Positions 1-58,808 of a stretch of 58,808 nucleotides of DNA are shown here, piece by piece. The notes under the pieces were generated by a model, which saw only the letters and a list, made by a program, of their open reading frames with translations, made no database searches and was not told where the DNA came from. The translations under genes and the position numbers were made by a program. Location: the NCBI GenBank assembly GCA_045598925.1, contig JAZRVC010000001.1, positions 1-58,808 on the forward strand. The letters are read 5' to 3'. The DNA is from Alphaproteobacteria bacterium. Lineage in GTDB: Bacteria > Pseudomonadota > Alphaproteobacteria > CAAHEQ01 > UBA3637. Each line of letters opens with the position of its first letter. Position 1 is the stretch's first letter.

Positions 1-345
1 GATGCCACCACAGATGCCCGTGCATTAGTTCCTGCGTTTGTGGGTAAAACATACCTTAATAAGACCATGAACTGGTGGAGTGCGCATAACTGGTGTTTAG
101 CACAAGGTTATACATTGATGTCTGAATCAAGTGCGGGTACATCGGGTTCGGTTGGTTTAAAAGCGCTTGCTTATGCTGTGAATGAAAGTTCTACGAAAGG
201 TGGCGGCGTTTGGTTGGAAGACGCCAGTACAAGTTCAACTACATATTCTTGCTACGTATACTACGTGTACAGTGATGGTAGTGTGTACGTCAGCCCTCGC
301 AACGGCGACGGCGGCGGCAGCTACCGTCCTGTTTGTAGTGGGTAG
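1..345 (+). CDS. C-terminal part of a secreted protein with a C-type-lectin-fold (CTLD/DUF1566-like) domain; the 5' end lies outside the window
   Basis: Frame 1 is open from nt 1, with no stop before the GTG at 40. MNWWSAHNWCLAQGYTLMS aligns with MNWWSANNWCQAQGKHLAS of the 8706..9983 product. VWLED and the terminal Cys fit the CTLD pattern (W-x-x-A-x-x-x-C ... WIGL-like ... C). Confidence 0.6.
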   Translation, partial: DATTDARALVPAFVGKTYLNKTMNWWSAHNWCLAQGYTLMSESSAGTSGSVGLKALAYAVNESSTKGGGVWLEDASTSSTTYSCYVYYVYSDGSVYVSPRNGDGGGSYRPVCSG

Positions 346-437: not shown

Positions 438-521
438 GTCATTCTGAAGACGACAGCCGAAGAACCCATAGATCCTTCGCGTTCGCTCAGGATGACACAA
501 AGGGGAAAAGCTCAGAATGAC
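438..521. repeat. REP/MITE-like palindromic unit (438..496, 59 nt) plus an orphan right arm (511..521)
   Basis: The unit reads GTCATTCTGAAG...CGAAGAACCC-ATA-GATCCTTCG...CTCAGGATGAC. Outer and inner arms are mutually complementary. It has the same 59-nt architecture as 8751..8809. Confidence 0.7.
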
Positions 522-6336: not shown

Positions 6337-7200
6337 TTATTTTTTACCGATTTCCTTCAATCGTTGCCATAAAGATTTTGCCACTTCTTTTTTAATTAAA
6401 GGAAGTAAAAAAGTATTCAACTCTTTTTCCAATTCTGCCATATCTGTGTAGGTTTTAATTTTTCCGTTTTTAATCAAAGACACGGCACCTGTTTCTTCCG
6501 ACACGACCAGGCATAAAGCATCCACGTTTTCGGTAAGTCCGATTGCCGCCCGATGACGCGTCCCGTAATGCCAAGTAAGAGAAAGATCCTTTGACAAAGG
6601 CAGAATCAATCCGGCCGAAATAATGCGTCCGTTTTTAATCAACACAGCTCCGTCATGCAAAGGGGTATTGATGAAAAATAAATTGATTAAAAGTTCCGAA
6701 GAGAGCAGGGCGTCCAAGCGAAATCCCGCGTGCGTCACACTGGCCACAGGTTCTTGATTTTCAAAGACCAAGAGGGCCCCCGTTTTTGTCTTACGCCAAT
6801 AGGCAATTGCGGGAATCAGAATATCAATTAAATTTGCTTTGATTTTCTTTTTTTGGGGTTGGGTTAAAGACACATTATTTCCCAAGCGGGTCATCAAACG
6901 GCGCAATTCGGGTTGGAACAACACAACGCCGGACAGAATCAATAAAAGAATTAAATTCCTGATCATCGCGCTTAAAATCCGCAAGTGAATCAATGAGCAA
7001 CATTCCGCCACAATCCACAAAGAGAAGAGGAAAATAACAATGCCTTTAACTGTTTTTTCGGCGGGCGAATCTTTAATAATTTTAGTATAAAAGAACAGCA
7101 CGCAGCCGATTACAATCGTCATTTGTCCCAAAAAACTAGCCCAAGACAAACCTGTATCGCCAAAAAAGTTTTGTAAATATTGTCGTAAAGAATCAATCAT
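6337..7200 (-). CDS. cdaA: Membrane-anchored diadenylate cyclase (CdaA/DacA type, DisA_N domain)
   Basis: Three N-terminal hydrophobic helices are followed by PLHDGAVLIKNGRIISAG, GTRHRAAIGLTE and VVSEETGAVSL, the hallmark DisA_N motifs. Confidence 0.85.
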   Translation of the reverse strand: MIDSLRQYLQNFFGDTGLSWASFLGQMTIVIGCVLFFYTKIIKDSPAEKTVKGIVIFLFSLWIVAECCSLIHLRILSAMIRNLILLLILSGVVLFQPELRRLMTRLGNNVSLTQPQKKKIKANLIDILIPAIAYWRKTKTGALLVFENQEPVASVTHAGFRLDALLSSELLINLFFINTPLHDGAVLIKNGRIISAGLILPLSKDLSLTWHYGTRHRAAIGLTENVDALCLVVSEETGAVSLIKNGKIKTYTDMAELEKELNTFLLPLIKKEVAKSLWQRLKEIGKK

Positions 7201-8705: not shown

Positions 8706-9983
8706 ATGAAAAAAAATAAAAATATGTTAAACGGATATACCACAACCCCCGTCATCCTGAGCGGACGCGAAGGATCCATGGATTCTTCGGCTAACGCCTT
8801 CAGAATGACAACAGAAGGGGGTCGGTCTATGGTTGAAATGCTGGGGGTACTGGCCATTATCGGATTATTGTCCAACGGGGGAATCGCGGGGTATAAGAAC
8901 GCGATGAACAAACACGCGGCGAACGAAATCATCAATGAAGTCAATAAACGGGCTGTCAGTGCCGCGGGACAATTATTGTTAGGGAAAGACTTCAATTTGG
9001 CCGAATTTGGCAACGCCACCGTAAAAGGATGTACAATTGCCAAAAAAGACGGCGTAGCGACGGGGAGTTTTGGCCTGACCGTTACAGGTATGGATAAAGG
9101 CGTATGCAAACAATTATGGGATATGTCTAAAGATTGGTCTGTTCCTGTGGATGTAATGCTCAATTCCAACGATACCTGTGGGGAAACAAACACTTTCACT
9201 TATTTGTTTGCGAACGATTTATCCAAGAATGTTGCCGAAACACCAATCAGTTATAAAACATGTGAGTCCGGTTGTGATACACGGGCGGAAACCTGCGATA
9301 CAGCCACAGGGAAATGCGTGAGTGCTTGTACTCAACCCGGTTTCTATTATAGTTCATCTGGCTGTAAGGAGGTCACGAACACGTTGAGTTGTTCCAAAGA
9401 GGGGGATACCGCTTGTCCAGGTAACTGCTGTGATACAAAGACCATGATGTGTGTCAGCGCATATTATGATGGCTCTAACTATCATTGTCAATATGATAAA
9501 ATTAAATGTAATAAGAATTCAGATTGTCATACAGGTCAATTCTGTTTGGTGAGTGGAAATTCCAATAGCCCTTCCGTTGGCCGCTGTACAGATGTATCAG
9601 AGGTTGGTGGTTATAGTATCCCAAGTGATGCGAATGCGTTTTTCAAGAATCTAGTACGTAGTCAACAACGTATGAATTGGTGGAGTGCGAACAACTGGTG
9701 TCAAGCGCAAGGCAAGCATCTGGCCAGTTTAGCGGATTTAGGCATCGTAAAACCTGGTTCTTGTTATGTCAAGGGAACCAGTTCGCCATGCGACTATACG
9801 GATAGTACGAAATGGACAGAAGCAAATTCTTATTATAATGCTTTAACGAGCGCCTTTGGTAATGAAAGTTATCTATGGACATCTGATAGCTCTTCTTCCT
9901 CCGGCGCGTCCAGCGTGGCCCTTAACTATGGTTACGTGAACGCCAGTTATCGCGAGGACATCCTCTATGCTCTGTGTAGGTAG
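8706..9983 (+). CDS. Prepilin-signal (class III) Cys-rich protein with a C-terminal C-type-lectin-fold domain; the start may instead be 8805
   Basis: G|RSMVEMLGVLAIIGLLS fits the prepilin cleavage/methylation motif (Gly at -1, Glu at +5, then a hydrophobic helix). More than 20 Cys occur in CxxxxDCxxGxFC-type modules. The C-terminus reads MNWWSANNWCQAQGKHLASLADLG...YLWTSD...YALCR. GGAG lies 5 nt upstream of the ATG at 8706. An alternative ATG at 8805 would give a 6-aa leader. Confidence 0.7.
   Translation: MKKNKNMLNGYTTTPVILSGREGSMDSSANAFRMTTEGGRSMVEMLGVLAIIGLLSNGGIAGYKNAMNKHAANEIINEVNKRAVSAAGQLLLGKDFNLAEFGNATVKGCTIAKKDGVATGSFGLTVTGMDKGVCKQLWDMSKDWSVPVDVMLNSNDTCGETNTFTYLFANDLSKNVAETPISYKTCESGCDTRAETCDTATGKCVSACTQPGFYYSSSGCKEVTNTLSCSKEGDTACPGNCCDTKTMMCVSAYYDGSNYHCQYDKIKCNKNSDCHTGQFCLVSGNSNSPSVGRCTDVSEVGGYSIPSDANAFFKNLVRSQQRMNWWSANNWCQAQGKHLASLADLGIVKPGSCYVKGTSSPCDYTDSTKWTEANSYYNALTSAFGNESYLWTSDSSSSSGASSVALNYGYVNASYREDILYALCR
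8751..8809. repeat. REP/MITE-like palindromic unit (59 nt) lying in frame within the 5' end of the 8706 ORF
   Basis: The unit reads GTCATCCTGAGCGGACG-CGAAGGATCC-ATG-GATTCTTCG-GCTAACGC-CTTCAGAATGAC. Its terminal AATGAC supplies the alternative ATG at 8805. Confidence 0.7.
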
Positions 9984-10006
9984 GGTTCCTTCGCTTCGGC
10001 TCTCTT

Positions 10007-10315
10007 GTCATTCTGAACTCGTTTCAGAATCCATTTATGGGTCAGCGTGGAGAGTTGAGACGAATTTTAATGGTTCGTGTCAACGTGCCAATGGATTCTC
10101 GGGTCAAGTCCGAGAATGACAAAGAAAGAGAATGTCATTCCTTGACGAACGATAGTGAGGAGATAAGGAATCTCAATCAGATGCCTTATTTCGCTAACGC
10201 TCAAGGCATGACAATAACCCCAACCGTCATTCTGAAGGGGCAATGCCCCGAAGAATCCATGGATCCTTCGGTCGTATAAACTCCCTCAGGATGACAATAA
10301 AAAGAGAGTCATGAC
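10007..10315. repeat. Array of at least 4 REP/MITE-like palindromic units of the same family
   Basis: Units lie at 10007..10032 and 10093..10120 (two half-units separated by about 60 nt), 10134..10212 (GTCATTCCTTGA...TCAAGGCATGAC), and 10226..10295 (GTCATTCTGAAG...CGAAGAATCC-ATG-GATCCTTCG...CTCAGGATGAC). A GTCATGAC core lies at 10308..10315. Confidence 0.75.
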
Positions 10316-20256: not shown

Positions 20257-20955
20257 ATGGAGAAAAATATGATTATTTTTGCATTATGGGGAGTTGTTTT
20301 CGGTTTTATTCTTCCATTTATCGCGGGACGATTTGGTAAGTTGGTTCCCGCCGACCCCGGAAGTATAATTTTACGCCTGTTCCATTTTCCAAAAATCCCC
20401 GCAAAAAAAGACCTTCAACGCTATTTATTATGGCAACGGCTCAATAAAAAACTTTATTACTGGGGTGTTTTTTGGGCCATCATGTGCGCATGTCTTTTTA
20501 CAGGTGTTTATCTGGTCATTCCCCCTGTTTTACAGACTTTTTCCTGTGTTTTTATTTGGGTAGTGTGCGCTTGTATGGTCATAGATGCTCTTTATTGGCT
20601 TTTACCTGACTTTTTCACTCTCCCCCTTTTGATGTTGGGTATTTTATTTGCCACAAAATCCTCCGATTTTTCTTTGGAAATGGCCCTGACGGGTGCCATT
20701 GGCGGCTATCTAGTTTCCGTCCTATCCGTGATGGTACTGGCGTTTTCACCTCAAAAAGAACTCGGATGCGGGGATGTCAAAATGATTACGGCCTTGGGCG
20801 CGTGGTTGGGAATTGTGGGTTTAAGCATAACCCTGGTGCTGTCTTTTATCTTTTTTGTGATTTTTTCCATTTTAGATTTACATAAGAAAGGAGCCTATGG
20901 TCCGGCCTTAGGAGCAGCCGCTATCATCAGTTTTTTTCTGATACATATGAAATAA
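20257..20955 (+). CDS. Prepilin (type IV leader) peptidase, A24 family
   Basis: Polytopic membrane protein with two Asp motifs: LLPDFFTLPLL and GCGDVKMITALGAWLG. No N-terminal CxxC domain is visible. Confidence 0.8.
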   Translation: MEKNMIIFALWGVVFGFILPFIAGRFGKLVPADPGSIILRLFHFPKIPAKKDLQRYLLWQRLNKKLYYWGVFWAIMCACLFTGVYLVIPPVLQTFSCVFIWVVCACMVIDALYWLLPDFFTLPLLMLGILFATKSSDFSLEMALTGAIGGYLVSVLSVMVLAFSPQKELGCGDVKMITALGAWLGIVGLSITLVLSFIFFVIFSILDLHKKGAYGPALGAAAIISFFLIHMK

Positions 20956-32617: not shown

Positions 32618-33274
32618 ATGACTTTTTCTAAAAAATCTTCGGAATCTGGCGCAACCAAATTAGAAGTTGTGGCAGTGTTTGGTATTGTTTTTATCTTGGC
32701 TGTCATTGCCGTTATCAGTTATTATTTGGCCCTAAATAAGCGCGCCGCGGAAAACATCCTGAACAAAGCCAACCAACGTGCCGTTACCGTTTCTGTACAA
32801 ATTCAAGACGGTAAACAAATTACCCTCAACGAATTTAAAGATAACGGCGATATCTTTTTGGGTGGAGAAAAAATCAATAAAAGTCAATTTAAACTGATTC
32901 TTTCAAAACAGGAAGAGGAAGTTTGCCAACAGATTAAGCAAATGGCGGGCTCCTATTCTTTGATACAGGGAACAAATGAAGATTGCACGGCCCTTTATTA
33001 TAATATTGATTTAAAGGTAAAAAACAGCCCGATTTGTTCTATCAGCAGTTATTTACAGGACAATAAATGCCTGCCCTGTGCTTTAGGGTCAAGAGAATGT
33101 GAATGTAAAGGCAGTAATCCTTATGCCGATGGAAAAGGCGGATGTTGCCATTATGTGCCCAACTATACGGACAGTTCTTTTACCTATTCTTTGGATGATG
33201 CTTGCTGTGGCGAAGGATTTGATATCGCTATCAATAATGACTGCGCCGATTCAAATCGTTTATATCAACGCTGA
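32618..33274 (+). CDS. Prepilin-signal protein with a Cys-rich C-terminal region
   Basis: MTFSKKSSESG|ATKLEVVAVFGIVFILAVIAVISYY has a basic leader, Gly at -1, Glu at +5 and a hydrophobic helix. The C-terminus has clustered Cys (CLPCALGSRECECKG...GGCCHY...DACCGEG...NDCAD). Confidence 0.6.
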   Translation: MTFSKKSSESGATKLEVVAVFGIVFILAVIAVISYYLALNKRAAENILNKANQRAVTVSVQIQDGKQITLNEFKDNGDIFLGGEKINKSQFKLILSKQEEEVCQQIKQMAGSYSLIQGTNEDCTALYYNIDLKVKNSPICSISSYLQDNKCLPCALGSRECECKGSNPYADGKGGCCHYVPNYTDSSFTYSLDDACCGEGFDIAINNDCADSNRLYQR

Positions 33275-34118: not shown

Positions 34119-35900
<1,782 letters not shown>

Positions 35901-35908
<8 letters not shown>

Positions 35909-36215
35909 TTTAGAAAAACATCTTAAAAAAACAGCGTCTCAATTGGTGAAAAAGACAGAACATCGTCAAAGTCGTCCTTCACGCGAACTGTTTTTTAATG
36001 CTTCAGTGATCAGCATTTATGGATTACAGGTCGCTTTGCCTGTTTTAATGGGGATTTTATTGGGTGCTTTTTTAGACCATGTTTTTCCGCACGAACTGCT
36101 TTCGTGGCAACTAAACTTCATCATTTTAGGGTTTATTATCGGCCTGATTGATGCCAACATTTGGTTGAAAAATTCATTTCAACTGACAAAGGAGAAAAAT
36201 GTCCGTAAGCATTAA
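35901..36215 (+). CDS. AtpQ-like small membrane protein of N-ATPase operons (AtpI/AtpZ-like)
   Basis: 104 aa with two hydrophobic helices. The position between atpC and atpB matches the N-ATPase gene order. GTG start. Confidence 0.55.
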
Positions 36216-48107: not shown

Positions 48108-49868
48108 CTATTTATTATAAAGCGGACGCGCTGTATAATGTGTATGCAATAATTCTTCTGATTTTTCGGACAAAGGCTTACCCAAAAATTCTTTATATAA
48201 CTTTTGAATATCCGGATTTTGATGAGAACAACGTAGTTTAGATTGTCTGTCATCTGCTTTTAATCCCGCTTGACGTGCTTTACGCACCGCATCAGTCACG
48301 CCCAAAGGTTGTCCGCCACCACCGATACAGCCACCGGGGCAAGCCATGACTTCAATAAAGTCATAAGGCGATTTTTCGCCATTGGCTTTGGCACGACGCA
48401 CTTTTTCCAAAACAGTCGCCACATTTTTAATTCCATGCGCTACAGCCACATGAATTTCTTTGTCGGCGATTTTAACTGTCATTTCCTTGGCGCCTTCATT
48501 CAAATTAGTAATTTGGTCAAATTCCAAATTGTCCAATTCTTTACCAGTAATCAGGTAATGGGCAGTACGCAAAGCAGCCTCCATCACACCACCGGAGAAT
48601 CCAAAGATTGTGCCGGCACCCGTATAGGCACCCAAAGGTGAATCGGCCGTTTCATCTGGAAGGGCGGTAAAATCAACACCCATTTGTTTAATCATCCGAA
48701 CCAATTCACGGGTTGTCAAAGACACATCAATGTTTTGAACACCATCGTGGAACATTTCTTTGGAACGTTTAATTTCCCATTTTTTCGCTGTACAGGGCAT
48801 AATGGACACAACGACCATATCTTCGGCCTTAACACCCACTTTATCAGCATAATAGGTCTTAGCCAAAGCGCCCAACATCGCCTGAGGTGATTTTGCCGTT
48901 GAGAAATTGTCAATCATATCATGATCCACTTTTTCCAAGTAATCCACCCAAGCAGGACAGCAACTGGTAATCAAAGGCAAGCGTTCAGGTTCAGTTGTAA
49001 AGCGTTTCACGAACTCACTGCCTTCTTCCATAATGGTCAAATCAGCCGCAAAGTTGGTATCAAAGACAGCCTTAAAGCCCATACGACGTAAAGCCGCATA
49101 GATTTTTCCTGTCACTAAATCACCGCTTTTATAACCAAAGGCTTCACCCAAAGCCACACGAACGGCTGGCGCAATCTGAACCACACAATACTTTGTGGTG
49201 TCTTGCAAATAATTCCAAACAGTGGCGGTTTCATCCACTTCGGTAATTGCCCCTGTGGGACAGTGTGCCGAACATTGCCCGCATTTAATACAGGGAGAAT
49301 CATTCAAAGGTAATCCACCCGCCGGGGCCATATGTGTATTGATACCACGTTGCAAAGAACTTAAAGCATAGACGTTTTGCACATTTTGACAAACTTCCAC
49401 ACAACGGCCACATTGAACACACTTACGCGGGTCAATTTGAATACAACCGGTGGAACTATCCACAGGCATTTCTTTTTCGGAAGGTGTAATGTTGGCAAAA
49501 GCATCTTTATCCAAAGCAAATTCTTTGGCCAAGTTTTGCAATTCGCAGTTTCCGTTTTTCAAACAGGACAAACAATCATTGGGGTGACGTGATAAAATCA
49601 ATTCCACGATTGTCTTACGGGCCTTCATAATATCGGGATCACGTGTAATGACCTGCATCCCTTCGGCCACGGGTGTACAGCACGAACGCAACATCCGTCC
49701 ATTGATTTTCACGATACAGACACCACAGGCTGCCGTTGCATCCAAATCGGGGTGCTTACACAATGTCGGCACAATGATTTGAGCCTCACGACAAGCATCC
49801 AATACACTTGTTCCTTCGGGAACTTTTACTTCCATTCCATCAATTGTTAAAGTAATCATTGTTAGCAT
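48108..49868 (-). CDS. hydA: [FeFe]-hydrogenase catalytic subunit (HydA, group A3-like)
   Basis: N-terminal 2Fe-2S and 4Fe-4S ferredoxin modules. H-cluster motifs are present: TSCCPAW (L1), MPCTAKKWE (L2) and EVMACPGGCIGGGGQP (L3). A small-subunit-like tail follows. An alternative start lies at 49859. Confidence 0.9.
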   Translation of the reverse strand: MLTMITLTIDGMEVKVPEGTSVLDACREAQIIVPTLCKHPDLDATAACGVCIVKINGRMLRSCCTPVAEGMQVITRDPDIMKARKTIVELILSRHPNDCLSCLKNGNCELQNLAKEFALDKDAFANITPSEKEMPVDSSTGCIQIDPRKCVQCGRCVEVCQNVQNVYALSSLQRGINTHMAPAGGLPLNDSPCIKCGQCSAHCPTGAITEVDETATVWNYLQDTTKYCVVQIAPAVRVALGEAFGYKSGDLVTGKIYAALRRMGFKAVFDTNFAADLTIMEEGSEFVKRFTTEPERLPLITSCCPAWVDYLEKVDHDMIDNFSTAKSPQAMLGALAKTYYADKVGVKAEDMVVVSIMPCTAKKWEIKRSKEMFHDGVQNIDVSLTTRELVRMIKQMGVDFTALPDETADSPLGAYTGAGTIFGFSGGVMEAALRTAHYLITGKELDNLEFDQITNLNEGAKEMTVKIADKEIHVAVAHGIKNVATVLEKVRRAKANGEKSPYDFIEVMACPGGCIGGGGQPLGVTDAVRKARQAGLKADDRQSKLRCSHQNPDIQKLYKEFLGKPLSEKSEELLHTHYTARPLYNK

Positions 49869-51583
49869 CCTTTCTTTTCTGTTTTATCAAGCAAGAGGGC
49901 TTCATATTCCTCAGGGAAGTACTTCATTGTTGAAAGCACCGGATTCGGGGACGTTTGTCCCAAACCGCACAGAGCCCCTTTTTGCATGGCAGAGCCAATT
50001 TCTTTAATCTTTTCCAAATCTTTATGGGTTCCTTTACCTTCGGCCACTTTGGTCAAAAGTTTCAGCATTTGATAGCCCCCTAAACGACAAGGCGCACATT
50101 TACCGCAGGATTCATCCACCGTAAAGCCCAAATAGAACTTGGCAATTTCCACCATAGAATCATCAGTATCCATTACAATCATACCACCTGATCCCATCAT
50201 TGAGCCAATCTTTTTTAATTCTTCATAACACAAAGGCAAGTTGAGTTCCTTGGCCGGAATCACACCGCCCGAAGGACCACCGGTTTGGACAGCCTTAAAC
50301 GGCTTACCTGTTGAGGTCCCACCACCGACTTCTTCCACCATTTCACGAACGGTTGTTCCCATGGGGACTTCCACCAAGCCCGAGTGCTTCACTTTACCGG
50401 TTAAGGCAAAAACTTTCGTTCCCTTACTGGTTTCAGTACCGACGGAGGAGAACCAATCCGCCCCGTTTAAGATAATTTGAGGCACATTCGCCCAAGTTTC
50501 CACGTTGTTGATAATCGTGGGCTTTTGGAATAAACCTTTTTCTGTCGGATATGGCGGACGAGGACGTGGTGTTCCTTTATTGCCTTCCAAAGACATCATG
50601 AGGGCTGTTTCTTCACCACACACAAAGGCCCCTGCCCCATAGCGCAGTTCTGCCATGAAGTTGAAGTCTGTTCCAAAAATATTTTTACCCAAGATACCGG
50701 CTTTTTTGGCTTGTTTAATGGCTAATTCCACACGTTCCAAAGCCAAAGGATATTCAGCCCGAACATAGAACCAACCCGCAGTGGCCCCTGTGGCATAAGC
50801 GGCAATCATCATCCCTTCCAACACGGCGTGAGCACCACCGCCCAAAATACAAGAATCCATATAGGCACCCGGATCGCCTTCATCCCCATTACAGATAATG
50901 AACTTTTCACCATCCACCAAGGGGGCTTTGGACAACAATTCCCACTTTTTGCCCGTGGGGAATCCGCCACCGCCACGACCACGAAGGCCCGACTTTTTAA
51001 TTTCATCCAAAACTTGTTCCGGTGTCATTTCAAACAAGCATTTCATCAACGCTTGATAACCACCGTTGGCTACATACTCGCCCAAATCTTCGGGGTCAGA
51101 ATTTCCCAAATGTTTCAACACCACACGACGTTGTTTGGTAAAGAACGGTAAATCCATTGACAATTCTTTTTCGGCTAAATGAGAGGCTAATTTAAGTTCC
51201 GCCTCAGGCTTACCCAACAAAGGTTTAATATGTTGTTCAACAATTAAATGGGCCATATCAGCCGTCATTTCTTTATACAAGAAGGGTTTACGCCCTTTTA
51301 TTTCAATACGTGTCATCGGACCCGCGGCACAAAGTCCCATACAGCCCGTGGCCACCAAACGAACTTTATCTGTCAATCCTGCGGTTTCCAAAGCAGCCTT
51401 AAAGGCTTCATAGACCGCTTGACCGCCACCCGAATGGCAACTAGTCGCATTACAGGTAAAAATAGTCGCTTCATACTGGGCATTTTTTGTTTCAAAATCC
51501 TTACCCATTTGCAAAAGTTTATCCTTTTGCATACGACCGACAGCCTTTAATTTTTCAATTTGTTCTTTTGTGAGTTCAACCAT
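49862..51583 (-). CDS. hydB: NuoF-like flavoprotein subunit of the hydrogenase (HydB)
   Basis: N-terminal thioredoxin-like 2Fe-2S region (CNATSCHSGG...GCMGLCAAGP), GRGGGGFPTGKKW FMN/NAD site and ESCGKCAPCR 4Fe-4S. The start was set at the ATG at 51583, which is preceded by AAGGAGGG and lies 1 nt after the hydC stop. Confidence 0.9.
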   Translation of the reverse strand: MVELTKEQIEKLKAVGRMQKDKLLQMGKDFETKNAQYEATIFTCNATSCHSGGGQAVYEAFKAALETAGLTDKVRLVATGCMGLCAAGPMTRIEIKGRKPFLYKEMTADMAHLIVEQHIKPLLGKPEAELKLASHLAEKELSMDLPFFTKQRRVVLKHLGNSDPEDLGEYVANGGYQALMKCLFEMTPEQVLDEIKKSGLRGRGGGGFPTGKKWELLSKAPLVDGEKFIICNGDEGDPGAYMDSCILGGGAHAVLEGMMIAAYATGATAGWFYVRAEYPLALERVELAIKQAKKAGILGKNIFGTDFNFMAELRYGAGAFVCGEETALMMSLEGNKGTPRPRPPYPTEKGLFQKPTIINNVETWANVPQIILNGADWFSSVGTETSKGTKVFALTGKVKHSGLVEVPMGTTVREMVEEVGGGTSTGKPFKAVQTGGPSGGVIPAKELNLPLCYEELKKIGSMMGSGGMIVMDTDDSMVEIAKFYLGFTVDESCGKCAPCRLGGYQMLKLLTKVAEGKGTHKDLEKIKEIGSAMQKGALCGLGQTSPNPVLSTMKYFPEEYEALLLDKTEKKGC

Positions 51584-51584
51584 C

Positions 51585-52061
51585 TTATTTACCCTCCTTT
51601 GCACGCCATTCATTGATAATGCCTTTGACCTTATCGGGCGTCATTTTACCATAGGTTGTACCATTGATCACCATCACAGGTGCCAAACCGCAACAACCCA
51701 AGCAACGCACCACTTGAATATAAAACAAACCATCATCAGTAGTTGTCCCCGCGGGCACACCCAATTCTTTTTCCAATTCGGCCAACACACTGGCGCCATC
51801 TTTAATATGACACGCTGTCCCATCACACATAGAAATAATATACTTTCCGGGGGCCTTTAATTTAAAGTAGTTATAGAACGTCAAGCATTCATAAATTTTC
51901 GCCATAGGAATCCCCAAACTTTGACCTAAATACAAGGCCTCATCCCAAGGAACATAACCAAATTGTCCCTGTAATTCATGCAACGCCATAATCAGGCAAC
52001 CACGTTTGCCTTGCCATTTGCGGATGATACCATCCACTTTTACTTTGTTTTCTTCGTTCAT
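51585..52061 (-). CDS. hydC: NuoE-like 2Fe-2S subunit of the hydrogenase (HydC)
   Basis: CLIMALHELQ...CDGTACHIKDG...VRCLGCCGLAP is the thioredoxin-like 2Fe-2S pattern. The start at 52061 is preferred (AAGGAAG Shine-Dalgarno); the alternative is 52076. Confidence 0.88.
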   Translation of the reverse strand: MNEENKVKVDGIIRKWQGKRGCLIMALHELQGQFGYVPWDEALYLGQSLGIPMAKIYECLTFYNYFKLKAPGKYIISMCDGTACHIKDGASVLAELEKELGVPAGTTTDDGLFYIQVVRCLGCCGLAPVMVINGTTYGKMTPDKVKGIINEWRAKEGK

Positions 52062-52092
52062 ATAACTTCCTTTCATAAAAAATGATTTTTGC

Positions 52093-55030: not shown

Positions 55031-55639
55031 ATGGTGAAAAAACTGTTATATACTTTGGAACTGATTATTTTGGCCGTCATCTTTTTTGTATCTGGCCAGT
55101 TGCTTTCTGTCCCGAATCAACCTCTTTCAGAAGAATTGCAACTTTTAAAAATGCAAGAAGAATACAGCCTGAAAGTCAAAAAGGATTTGGAAAATACCTT
55201 GGAAACTTTGGTGGGGCCCGGAAATGTCAAAGTCTTTGTTCAAATCTATTTAAAAAAGGCGCAAACAAATATCCAAACCCAAAAAGGCACAGCCTATAAC
55301 AAAACCATTGAAACAAAGCACACACAGGCTGTTGTCGTAGATCAACAACATGTGAGTCTTATTTTAAACAATACCCCGCCCGTCAAATTGGCAACCTATA
55401 AGAATTTGACCGAATCCGCCTTGGGAATCAACAAGAATTTGGGTGATACCTTGGCAATTGAAATTTTACCGTTTTATAAACACCCCTTCTTCACTTTTGG
55501 GCTTTCTCGTCTGACTTTAATCAAGTTGGCAGGCGTTATGTTAGGGGTGTTCTTCATCCTGTGCATTTTGTTGATTTACATTTATTTAAAGGAAAGAGAT
55601 ACCTTCACCCAAAATGATTTTTTGTCCGGAAAAGAATAA
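55031..55639 (+). CDS. Bitopic membrane protein with a single FliF/YscJ-type ring-building motif
   Basis: N- and C-terminal TM helices. KKDLENTLETLVGPGNVKVFVQIY aligns with E. coli FliF ELARTIETLGPVKSARVHLA. The protein is 202 aa, against about 550 aa for FliF. Confidence 0.45.
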   Translation: MVKKLLYTLELIILAVIFFVSGQLLSVPNQPLSEELQLLKMQEEYSLKVKKDLENTLETLVGPGNVKVFVQIYLKKAQTNIQTQKGTAYNKTIETKHTQAVVVDQQHVSLILNNTPPVKLATYKNLTESALGINKNLGDTLAIEILPFYKHPFFTFGLSRLTLIKLAGVMLGVFFILCILLIYIYLKERDTFTQNDFLSGKE

Positions 55640-57157: not shown

Positions 57158-58808
57158 TCAACTACCACAACTATATCTTACTTCAACATTCACATCTGTA
57201 TCAAAGCTCATTCCAAAACCACTTCCTTTTTTACAATGCCCTTCACTAATCCCGTATTTTGAAATATTACTTGGATAAATTCTTATATACCGACCATCAG
57301 CCTTCTCATTAAAAACAGTTGCCCATTGACCTTTTTTTACAAGAACCCCATTAAAAGCAATATCCTTCACATCATCCGGACCACTGGTTGTATATTTAAG
57401 TTCAACTTTATACTTACCATTTTTACACAATTGATCATAATGCCAACCGCCCCCTATTCCCAATGGATACTCATTTTGGATTGGAAGTTCGATTGCATCA
57501 GGTCCACTTGTCCCTCTCGTGCTAATCGTAAGAGAATCACTCATACCGGTACAAATCGCATAATAACTTTTACTTTGGGTTCCCGCCCATTTGTAACACG
57601 ACCAACCATTATACCAGGTACATACCATCGTTCCTTCACAGGCGCAATCCCCTTGATTACAATCATCTCCTTCTTTTCCTAAACGCATAGCCACTTTCCA
57701 ATTAGTTGAATTACAAATATGGCATGAAGAATAAGGAACTTTAGATTCATCAGTAACAATTGTCCCATTATCACATTTTCCACATTCTGAAACAGTTTGT
57801 CCATGAGTATAGGTTTTTCCTGAAAATGAACAACTTTTATAAATGATACATTGATCGACGGGTTGATTTGAAGAACAAAAATTTTCTGTTACTTGCGTAC
57901 AAACACCATTTACATTTTTATTGTATGTATAAGGTTGTTTATCCCCTCCAACACATGTTCCTTGACTACATTTACCACTGCTACATTCTCCACACACAGT
58001 ATTATCGGCCAGACCTTTAAAACTCCATGTTGTGGAATCACATGCTTGGCAGGTTGGTACGGTAATGCCGGTATTCCGTATCACAGAACCATTACGACAA
58101 ATACCACAATCAGAAACTTGTTCACCTTCAGTATATTGAACCCCATTGACAATACACAAGTGTTTACAGGTATGAGTGATAGCATCACAAACATCCCCAT
58201 TCACACAATCACTTGTCTCATTACATTCTACACATGTTCCATCTGTATAACACATAGGTTTGGGTGATACACATGTTTTCGGTTTTTCTAAAACACATCC
58301 TTTGGCGTCTAATACATTAGACGTAATTGTACATTTTTCTATGGGAGTATGTTCACACAATCTACAAGTATGCGTCGTTGGATCACAATACTTTCCTTCA
58401 GTGCAATCATTTGCCTCATTACATTCTACACATGTTCCATCTGTATGACACATAGGTTTGGGTGATGCACAAGTTTTCGGTTTTTCTAAAACACACCCTT
58501 TGGCGTCCAATACATTAGACGTAATTGTACATTTTTCTATGGGAGTATGTTCACACAATCTACAAGTATGCGTCGTTGGATCACAATACTTTCCCTCAGC
58601 GCAATCACCAACTTTAATACATTCCACACATTTCTGATTGTCGGGATCCCAAACTGGTTTATCCAACGGACAAACACATTGATGATTTCTGCAAATCAGT
58701 TCGGTGGAATCGCAACCACAGGCTTCATTACATTCGCCTTCATATTGGGTGGATAATGTTTTACATTGACAGGTGGCATCACGGCACGATAATCCTGCTT
58801 CACAACAT
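57158..58808 (-). CDS. Large Cys-rich repeat protein; the N-terminus lies beyond the window end
   Basis: The reading frame stays open from the tracked TTG (58666) to nt 58808 (…CCEAGLSCRDATCQCKT…NHQCVCPLDKPVW…). It has repeated CVECN-x3-DC-x2-G-x-YCDPTTHTC modules related to those in the 8706 product, and a Cys-poor C-terminal domain of about 110 aa. Confidence 0.7.
   Translation of the reverse strand, partial: CCEAGLSCRDATCQCKTLSTQYEGECNEACGCDSTELICRNHQCVCPLDKPVWDPDNQKCVECIKVGDCAEGKYCDPTTHTCRLCEHTPIEKCTITSNVLDAKGCVLEKPKTCASPKPMCHTDGTCVECNEANDCTEGKYCDPTTHTCRLCEHTPIEKCTITSNVLDAKGCVLEKPKTCVSPKPMCYTDGTCVECNETSDCVNGDVCDAITHTCKHLCIVNGVQYTEGEQVSDCGICRNGSVIRNTGITVPTCQACDSTTWSFKGLADNTVCGECSSGKCSQGTCVGGDKQPYTYNKNVNGVCTQVTENFCSSNQPVDQCIIYKSCSFSGKTYTHGQTVSECGKCDNGTIVTDESKVPYSSCHICNSTNWKVAMRLGKEGDDCNQGDCACEGTMVCTWYNGWSCYKWAGTQSKSYYAICTGMSDSLTISTRGTSGPDAIELPIQNEYPLGIGGGWHYDQLCKNGKYKVELKYTTSGPDDVKDIAFNGVLVKKGQWATVFNEKADGRYIRIYPSNISKYGISEGHCKKGSGFGMSFDTDVNVEVRYSCGS
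58251..58646. repeat. Intragenic tandem duplication, 2 x 198 nt (66 codons)
   Basis: CACATAGGTTTGGGTGA recurs at 58251 and 58449. The cores 58251..58410 and 58449..58608 differ at only about 6 positions. Confidence 0.85.

Follow-up and report, generated by a model that had tools for sequence, protein, structure and literature searches.

Within the 58,808 nucleotides of contig JAZRVC010000001.1, the whole stretch of alphaproteobacterial DNA that was analysed and that we call the window, the gene at 8706..9983 encodes a modular type IV pilin-like protein. Its 425-residue product has four parts, which are, in order, a class III (prepilin) signal, a pilin module resembling TcpA, a stalk rich in cysteine and, at the C-terminus, a C-type-lectin-like domain (CTLD). 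A type IVb-like pilin module makes up the N-terminal 140 residues, and the rest is grafted onto it. This is the architecture of a modular pilin, in which a pilin module is followed by a C-terminal functional domain of a kind not peculiar to pili. The protein belongs to a class that has already been described, and the class is not new. We lean towards the view that this is a modular type IVb-like pilin. An A24 prepilin peptidase would cleave it, and as a subunit probably of the minor or tip kind it would display a stalked CTLD adhesin.

Judging by its homologues, of which a homologue search returned 355 at E<=1e-3, the open reading frame (ORF) is a real conserved gene. The family is large, with at least 576 related stretches found in a scan of one genome per species. 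The Alphaproteobacteria that carry it are uncultured but common gut inhabitants of humans, ruminants and rabbits.

Four parts of one protein

The evidence for a prepilin begins with the signal, which in translation reads E37-G38-G39/R40-S41-M42-V43-E44-MLGVLAIIGLLS, with the slash at the predicted cut. A class III signal with Gly at -1 and Glu at +5 had been claimed in the original prediction, and it is borne out here. Past the cleavage site the sequence runs E44-M-L-G-V-L-A-I-I-G-L-L-S. Among 67 aligned homologues, whose overall identity is only about 30-40%, the G, R, S, M, M, L and G of the signal are invariant, and the V and E are nearly so. The positions of G, R and S use all of their synonymous codons across 103 genomic copies (GGN, CGN/AGA, AGY plus TCN), which argues that the stretch is translated and selected as protein. 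The same codon variation rules out another candidate function for this stretch, that of a ribosome-binding site ahead of a shorter protein. In the same 103 copies the consensus leader is basic and Lys-rich, with E/Q at -3 and G at -1. The invariant GRSMVEMLGVLAIIGVLS signal is a simple marker with which the whole family can be found and annotated.

Behind the signal lies a pilin. Residues 40-63 form the hydrophobic stretch of the first helix, in which positions 8 and 14 of the mature protein are Gly. Glu5 and these two glycines are typical of assembling pilins, and all three are invariant or nearly so in the family. In the AlphaFold model of the full protein (pLDDT, the predicted local distance difference test, 79; pTM, the predicted template-modelling score, 0.48) a helix at residues 41-91 is followed by a four-stranded sheet, and the pLDDT of the pilin module is about 90. 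The best match of this model in the PDB, as ranked by Foldseek, is TcpA in the toxin-coregulated pilus (8uhf, probability 0.99).

A sequence profile gives a similar result. It was built from the first 135 mature residues and searched against all PDB sequences, and its 12 best matches are all type IV pilins, aligned from mature residue 2 or 3. TcpA leads (E=5.6e-5), followed by Dichelobacter nodosus FimA (9.4e-4), PilA (1.2e-3) and PAK pilin (2.1e-3), with weaker values for CofA (0.02), PpdD (0.13) and PilE (0.14). Glu5 is in register in both of the profile-to-pilin alignments that were printed. The alignment with TcpA, which is the best match of the module in both sequence and structure, extends into the globular part (FtItVe.v.e.vCk.l against FAISVDGLTQAQCKTL) and includes the strand-helix region FxIxVxGvxxxxCxxL. 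The small pilin-like region of the original prediction is thus supported by the model, by Foldseek and by the profile. NCBIfam gives only a weak match, to PpdD.

The three cysteines of the module (Cys109, Cys134 and Cys158) include a pair that hardly varies across the family (C101 and C125 in the numbering of A1) and may form a disulfide like that of the pilin D-region. The same pair is found in paralogues that consist of a pilin alone. Because these pilin-only paralogues (115-156 mature residues, often in tandem) align over the module, the module can be regarded as separable.

The stalk that follows has been modelled by AlphaFold as a set of small hairpins with pLDDT 60-75. More than 20 cysteines had been placed in it; the stalk is indeed rich in cysteine, but its share is 16, and the count of 23 for the whole protein is made up by three in the pilin module and four in the head. 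The stalk ends in a knot, C-x-K/T-N-S-D-C-x-x-G-x-F/Y-C...G-x-C, that is conserved in the family and always stands before the head. In relatives, the stalk region matches the Pfam families EGF, Teneurin-EGF or EB-module.

For the head, a model of residues 292-425 alone has pLDDT 84 and pTM 0.77. All 50 of its best PDB matches are CTLDs (Foldseek probability 0.98-1.0, template-modelling (TM) score 0.39-0.50 normalised to the query), e.g. tunicate TC14, the macrophage galactose lectin, snake-venom CTLDs, natural killer (NK) receptors, the C-terminal domain of Legionella Lcl and Bdellovibrio Bd2740. A family profile of the head alone, searched against the PDB, finds PLA2R (7.7e-6), DEC-205 (1.9e-5) and langerin (5e-4). 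No homologue came up in a word-index search with the head alone. An exhaustive search with the head profile, through 1.84 billion representative proteins, gave 1,251 matches at E<=1e-3, and these include animal proteins with 8-12 Lectin_C domains, confirmed with Pfam, at E-values of 1e-17 to 1e-22.

The details of the head agree with this placement. Cys332 (in NWC, part of the helix motif WWSAxNWC) and Cys424 (in YALC, on the last strand) are invariant columns, and they stand where a CTLD has its canonical disulfide, which links the first helix to the last strand; from this placing we infer that the two are paired. Cys353 and Cys362 lie in a variable insert between the two helices of the head. 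In the model, YLWTSD forms the strand equivalent to WIGL and is followed by three short hairpins. The head therefore shares with animal CTLDs the fold, the W-x-x-A-x-x-x-C helix motif, the Cys pair and a W-T/I-x-D strand in the place of WIGL. Unlike them it is compact, without the long loop, the EPN, QPD or WND motifs and the second canonical disulfide, and with a Cys-containing insert that varies.

Bacterial structural neighbours are the C-terminal domains of Lcl (8q4e) and Bd2740 (8oks), with TM scores of 0.43-0.45 normalised to the query. These have a similar 'lollipop' design, in which a stalk carries a CTLD-like head that lacks the motifs for Ca2+ and sugar. Lcl differs in having a collagen-like stalk, a trimeric form, no disulfides and export by a type II system, whereas the present head keeps a Cys pair at the canonical disulfide positions and has no match to Pfam DUF1566. 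A CTLD/DUF1566 signature had been proposed for this region. The CTLD part is upheld by the fold and profile searches, but at the level of Pfam the signature is absent: neither Lectin_C nor DUF1566 matches the single sequence at E<=10. The same is true of N_methyl, and the likeness of the protein to these families becomes visible only with profiles and folds. We conclude that the head is a member of the CTLD superfamily and that it is neither a canonical Ca2+-dependent lectin nor a member of Pfam DUF1566.

The possibility that the head is the variable protein of a diversity-generating retroelement was also considered and rejected. The window contains no second copy of the 3' region of the gene, and no reverse transcriptase is among its annotated ORFs.

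A dispersed family with varied stalks and heads

Much of what can be said about the protein comes from its relatives. Named homologues come from records titled 'MAG: Alphaproteobacteria bacterium' (MAG, metagenome-assembled genome), some of them called 'type II secretion system protein' by the Prokaryotic Genome Annotation Pipeline (PGAP). We surveyed 80 related loci, which together cover ~1.2 Mb and hold more than 100 family genes. The record titles of 78 of these loci name uncultured Alphaproteobacteria from the human, ruminant or rabbit gut, and the two exceptions are probably mis-binned contigs. Single genomes among the retrieved loci carry at least 13 copies (e.g. SIG60 and SIG53). A literature search on the GRSMVEML motif, or on pilins of RF32/gut Alphaproteobacteria, found no paper on this family.

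The copies differ widely in size and in what they carry. Mature proteins range from 115 to 984 residues with up to 82 Cys. A CTLD is found in about one third to one half of them; the other heads include discoidin (F5/8 type C) domains, Hint domains and EGF arrays. A good illustration of the pattern is the comparison of the 8706..9983 product with P0002, its closest relative. Identity is 99% in the pilin module and falls to 44% in the stalk, then returns to 83% in the knot and is 60% in the head. Such a mosaic suggests either the exchange of modules or strong diversifying selection on stalk and head.

At least three relatives had been reported in the window itself, and three were named. One of these, a protein of 218 residues, is a member of the family (E=9e-21); its class III-like signal is divergent, and a pilin module and a short tail rich in Cys follow. 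The other two are cut by the ends of the window, which leaves their N-termini outside it. At the 5' end only a related CTLD can be seen, and at the 3' end only a weak likeness to the stalk, at an E-value of about 1e-5.

The knot and CTLD also occur as a cassette on other carriers. These are proteins with a Sec signal, secreted proteins of small size, and giant ones in which the domain is repeated in tandem up to 20 times, e.g. P0121 (6368 residues). One set of carriers forms a second family (P0145, P0158, P0131 and ~30 others) with a Sec signal that ends AFAFGGGG and is followed by a conserved YKGGVD(S/A)IGVH; it has no match in Pfam.

In some related loci the family genes stand beside small serine recombinases. 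Three of these recombinases lie divergently upstream of a family gene (in L015, L023 and L030). Pfam confirmed the one in L015 as a Resolvase, and BLAST groups the others with it. The L015 locus also has, just upstream of its family gene, a 108-bp segment with a 36-nt hix-like palindrome on either side (9740-9775 and 9884-9919); the 2-bp core is GT in one palindrome and its reverse complement, AC, in the other. On the strength of this arrangement the 108-bp segment is a candidate invertible promoter, which might make expression of the pilin phase-variable. No serine recombinase or invertible switch was found beside the 8706..9983 gene.

Processing, assembly and the case for display

The window contains a candidate for the processing enzyme. 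An A24 prepilin peptidase had been reported in it, and this was confirmed with Pfam (Peptidase_A24, E=8.7e-16). The enzyme carries the motifs IDALYWLLPD (D110) and GCGDVK (D173), whose Asp residues we take to be catalytic. The gene, of ~228 codons, has 566 homologues in the lineage. Its neighbourhood, dnaG-yqeY on one side and rodZ-prfA-prmC on the other, is shared by the window and four related loci (L081-L084), with rpoD upstream of dnaG in three of those four. The peptidases of the four loci are only 41-44% identical, and still the synteny is kept. In these relatives nothing but housekeeping genes was found beside the peptidase, and no pilus genes. It behaves as a core gene and not as part of a pilus operon.

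Assembly genes are harder to place. No neighbour is recurrently linked to family genes in the 80 loci; the commonest are heterogeneous ABC ATPases, ankyrin-repeat proteins and SSB. One related MAG has two divergent ATPases of the T2SSE family, found by phmmer with PilT and PilB queries and confirmed with Pfam and the PDB. The first, of 627 residues, resembles PilT, GspE and PilB, has a Pro-rich, repetitive N-terminus and lies beside rimP-nusA-infB, 5 kb from a family gene. The second, of 362 residues, resembles CpaF and VirB11 and lies beside lptF/G. A metagenome scan with the 627-residue ATPase found only three close relatives. These too lie beside rimP-nusA-infB, and no gene of the family lies within 10 kb of them. 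The genes of type IV filaments seem to be scattered among housekeeping loci in this lineage. We regard the assembly of the 425-residue protein into a fibre as plausible.

If so, how would the protein work? As made, it carries a class III signal that can be read from the sequence. The A24 peptidase encoded in the window would cut it after Gly39. The new N-terminus, R-S-M-V-E, and a hydrophobic helix of 20 residues would then let the module of residues 40-178 enter a type IV filament, as the pilin-only paralogues would do. Because of its bulk, the protein is most probably a minor or tip subunit of that filament. The disulfide-rich stalk (~115 residues) would hold the head off the fibre, the fold of the head being observed and its function presumed. 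The ligand would most likely be a glycan or a glycosaminoglycan-like polymer, either of the host mucosa or of another microbe. Across the many paralogues, a constant signal and pilin module with varied stalks and heads would amount to a repertoire of adhesins.

Several observations weigh against this account. The window lacks genes for an assembly ATPase, a platform and a secretin, as the original prediction also stated. In the surveyed loci the two orphan ATPases are the only assembly genes linked to the family, and a search with a PilC query found no PilC/GspF-like platform or secretin there, which is a weak negative. The peptidase has no detected N-methyltransferase domain, Pfam N_methyl does not match the protein and Arg at +1 is unusual for pilins. 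The largest paralogues (984 residues with 82 Cys) would be awkward to pass through a secretin. At a pTM of 0.48 the orientation of the domains in the full model is uncertain. As for the head, the model joins beta2, beta3 and beta4 by short turns with the long loop region missing, and the sequence has none of the motifs EPN, QPD and WND.

Some of these points could be explained if the protein had a class III signal and yet was no subunit of a fibre. It could be anchored in the inner membrane or form the stub of a pseudopilus, with the stalk and CTLD acting in the periplasm or envelope, or after release. We consider this rather unlikely. It would fit the lack of an assembly operon beside any of the family genes, the scatter of these genes, the peptidase and the ATPases among housekeeping genes, the 'type II secretion system protein' titles and the very large paralogues; and because the knot and CTLD also occur on ordinary Sec-signal proteins, a pilus is not needed to deploy the cassette. 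However, pilin-only paralogues of the size of a major pilin exist, often in tandem, the closest matches of the module are fibre-forming major pilins (TcpA, PilA and FimA) and not pseudopilins, the glycines and Glu5 noted above are kept, and an adhesin-like stalk and head make little sense in the periplasm. It is very improbable that the N-terminus is merely an ordinary Sec signal or transmembrane anchor that resembles a prepilin signal, with the A24 peptidase serving some other substrate. The Pfam and TIGR models of the prepilin N-terminus do fail to match, and the Arg at +1 is again atypical. Against that, G-R-S-M-V-E-M-L-G is invariant or nearly so across hundreds of proteins that are otherwise ~30% identical, and ordinary signal peptides are not conserved in this way. 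The profile also stays in register with type IV pilins from the mature N-terminus into the globular domain, and the peptidase belongs to the conserved core genome of the very lineage in which the family occurs.

The nature of the ligand is a separate matter. It is quite possible, if short of likely, that the head is no lectin, and that the ligand of the compact CTLD is a protein or something else other than a glycan (compare intimin/invasin, NK receptors and snake venoms), or that the domain serves mainly as a variable antigenic cap. The missing loop and motifs point this way, as do the many best structural matches that bind proteins, e.g. snake venom proteins, NKR-P1/LLT1, CD94/NKG2A and KLRG1. 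The C-terminal domain of Lcl, a structural neighbour, is likewise without sugar motifs and nevertheless binds sulphated glycosaminoglycans (PMC11162425). On the side of a glycan, the strongest single-domain profile matches, which come after the multi-CTLD proteins PLA2R and DEC-205, include langerin, a sugar-binding protein. Two relatives weakly match Xlink, the Link module, whose ligand is hyaluronan, with no single stretch passing the threshold. The discoidin heads of other family members point the same way, as carbohydrate or lipid is often the ligand of such domains. Canonical Ca2+-dependent sugar binding is unlikely for the present head, because it has neither the long loop nor EPN, QPD or WND. 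By analogy with the Lcl head, binding of a glycan or glycosaminoglycan is plausible, and 'lectin' is to be read as the assignment of a fold.

Returning to the display of a CTLD adhesin on a type IV fibre, there are precedents. Two InterPro entries matter for the comparison, IPR001304, presumably the C-type lectin domain, and IPR011460, which we take to be the entry for DUF1566 and the Lcl C-terminal domain. The original prediction did not recognise the architecture as a described pilin class. Its claim of novelty is not supported: 'modular pilins' were defined by Raynaud et al. in 2021, who reported more than 1,200 proteins and 264 architectures, and their Dataset S1 lists three proteins with IPR012902-IPR001304 and seven with IPR012902-IPR011460, plus two in which the latter domain is doubled (PMC8179133). 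In substance, then, the architecture is already on record, but the listed proteins are uncharacterised and the signatures that were used do not detect the family studied here. Particular to this family are a TcpA-like module whose +1 residue is Arg, a stalk that is long and rich in disulfides, a compact CTLD homologous to animal Lectin_C, the size and dispersal of the family and a peptidase in the core genome.

Among the closest known systems are PilB (with a vWA domain) and PilC (with a ConA-like lectin) of Streptococcus sanguinis (PMC8179133; Shahin 2023, PMC9934059). In both cases, as here, a small pilin module with a class III signal bears a grafted C-terminal binding module, and adhesion at the tip is proposed. 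The differences are considerable. The protein described here comes from an alphaproteobacterium of the gut, which is Gram-negative. Its pilin module resembles TcpA (type IVb-like) and has Arg at +1, and where the others have a short linker it has a long stalk rich in disulfides. The head is a compact CTLD and not a ConA-like or vWA domain, dozens of dispersed paralogues replace one gene in a pil operon, and neither InterPro nor Pfam has a signature that detects the protein.

A second comparison is with the type IVb pilins of enteric pathogens, i.e. the major pilins TcpA and CofA and the large minor pilins TcpB and CofB. Type IVb systems are compact operons that include the peptidase and ATPase, unlike the scattered genes found here. 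Position +1 is Met in TcpA and CofA, and Arg in this family. Bulky minor pilins at the tip have precedents in CofB and TcpB (PMC8179133), which, unlike the present protein, lack a CTLD. The variation among paralogues can also be compared with a further system. PilV of the R64 thin pilus, encoded by a shufflon, combines a constant N-terminal pilin part with interchangeable C-terminal receptor-binding parts, and a tyrosine recombinase swaps the C-terminal exons of the one gene. The constant pilin part, the exchangeable receptor-binding ends and the link to a site-specific recombinase are shared with the present family. Unlike in R64, the variants lie on separate paralogous genes, and the serine recombinases of related loci appear to flip promoters and not coding segments.

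A broader and more tentative idea is that the lineage as a whole possesses a dispersed, phase-variable 'pilus-tip wardrobe', in which an invariant pilin carrier takes swapped stalks and heads, some copies are switched by hix-like sites, the A24 peptidase is core and the ATPases are scattered. This is possible, and we would not yet call it probable; were it true, the wardrobe would dominate the attachment of these bacteria to host or microbial surfaces. What we can say is that the family, invisible to Pfam and NCBIfam, is probably the main adhesin repertoire of these bacteria. If its members are displayed on a pilus, the principle of the modular pilin would extend to a Gram-negative gut commensal and in an extreme form, with one carrier and dozens of heads. 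It would also add a bacterial CTLD family that is still detectably homologous to the C-type lectin domains of animals. The heads of the family are candidates for assays of binding to mucin glycans and glycosaminoglycans.

The gene in its window

The positions of the features discussed above, and of some others, are collected in Table 1. Apart from the gene under study and the truncated paralogue at the 3' end, every ORF of the window with at least 330 codons is a housekeeping gene. The window has a G+C content of ~40%, and its genes include those for tRNA synthetases, F-ATPase subunits, DnaG, RF1 and MurJ.

Table 1. Features of the window and, where a locus is named, of related loci
Feature	Position	Strand	Remarks
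Gene under study	8706..9983	+	425 aa plus stop; modular type IV pilin-like protein
Leader region	8706..8822	+	Residues 1-39, ending E37-G38-G39; K-rich start MKKNKN; preceded by GGAG Shine-Dalgarno
Palindromic MITE/REP-like element, 59 nt	8751..8809		In frame in leader-coding region, between K-rich start and EGG/RSM site
Predicted prepilin-peptidase site	8820..8837	+	G39/R40-S-M-V-E44 (Gly -1, Arg +1, Glu +5)
Pilin module	8823..9239	+	Residues 40-178; first helix, 4-stranded sheet, Cys109, Cys134, Cys158
Cys-rich stalk	9240..9593	+	Residues 179-296; 16 Cys
Compact CTLD	9594..9980	+	Residues 297-425
3' end of another gene with related CTLD	1..345	+	MNWWSAHNWCLAQG...PVCSG; N-terminus outside window
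Paralogue	32618..33274	+	218 aa; divergent class III-like signal ESG/ATKLE, pilin module, short Cys-rich tail (12 Cys); E=9e-21
Cys-rich protein, possible relative	57158..58808	-	Weak stalk likeness only, E about 1e-5; N-terminus outside window
A24 prepilin peptidase, candidate processing enzyme	20257..20955	+	Pfam Peptidase_A24 E=8.7e-16
Other copies of the 59-nt element	438-496 (-); 10226-10297; partial 10005-10122		Just 3' of the 1..345 paralogue and of the 8706 gene
Fe-only hydrogenase large subunit	48108-49868		Within listed region 48108-52076
NuoF-like FMN subunit	49862-51613		Adjoins Fe-only hydrogenase
DAC, FliI-like and FliF-part features	6337-7200; 34128-36215; 55031-55639		Coordinates listed jointly
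Small serine recombinases beside family genes	L015:8964-9956; L023:1461-2300; L030:4473-5250; L074:15316-15915
Orphan T2SSE-family ATPases	L013:16437-18320; L085:9266-10828; L015:676-1764

A repeated element bears on the start of the gene. Residues ~15-35 of the annotated N-terminus are an in-frame copy of a 59-nt palindrome, resembling miniature inverted-repeat transposable elements (MITE) or repetitive extragenic palindromes (REP), with the ends GTCATYCTGA/TCAGRATGAC and the centre CGAAGGATCCATGGATYCTTCG. In-frame insertions of the element are also found in the homologues P0002-P0005 and P0008, sometimes in several copies. It may be that such an insertion is tolerated in a leader that is cleaved off. 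The leader has ~39 residues if translation starts at 8706, and six if it starts at the ATG at 8805 (M34).

Finally, some genes of the window tell us about the organism. The Fe-only hydrogenase stands beside a subunit resembling NuoF, which points to an anaerobe, and the two are possibly parts of an electron-bifurcating complex. The window also encodes a cyclic di-AMP cyclase with a DAC domain and an ATPase resembling FliI, and it holds a short ORF that matches the C-terminal part of FliF only.

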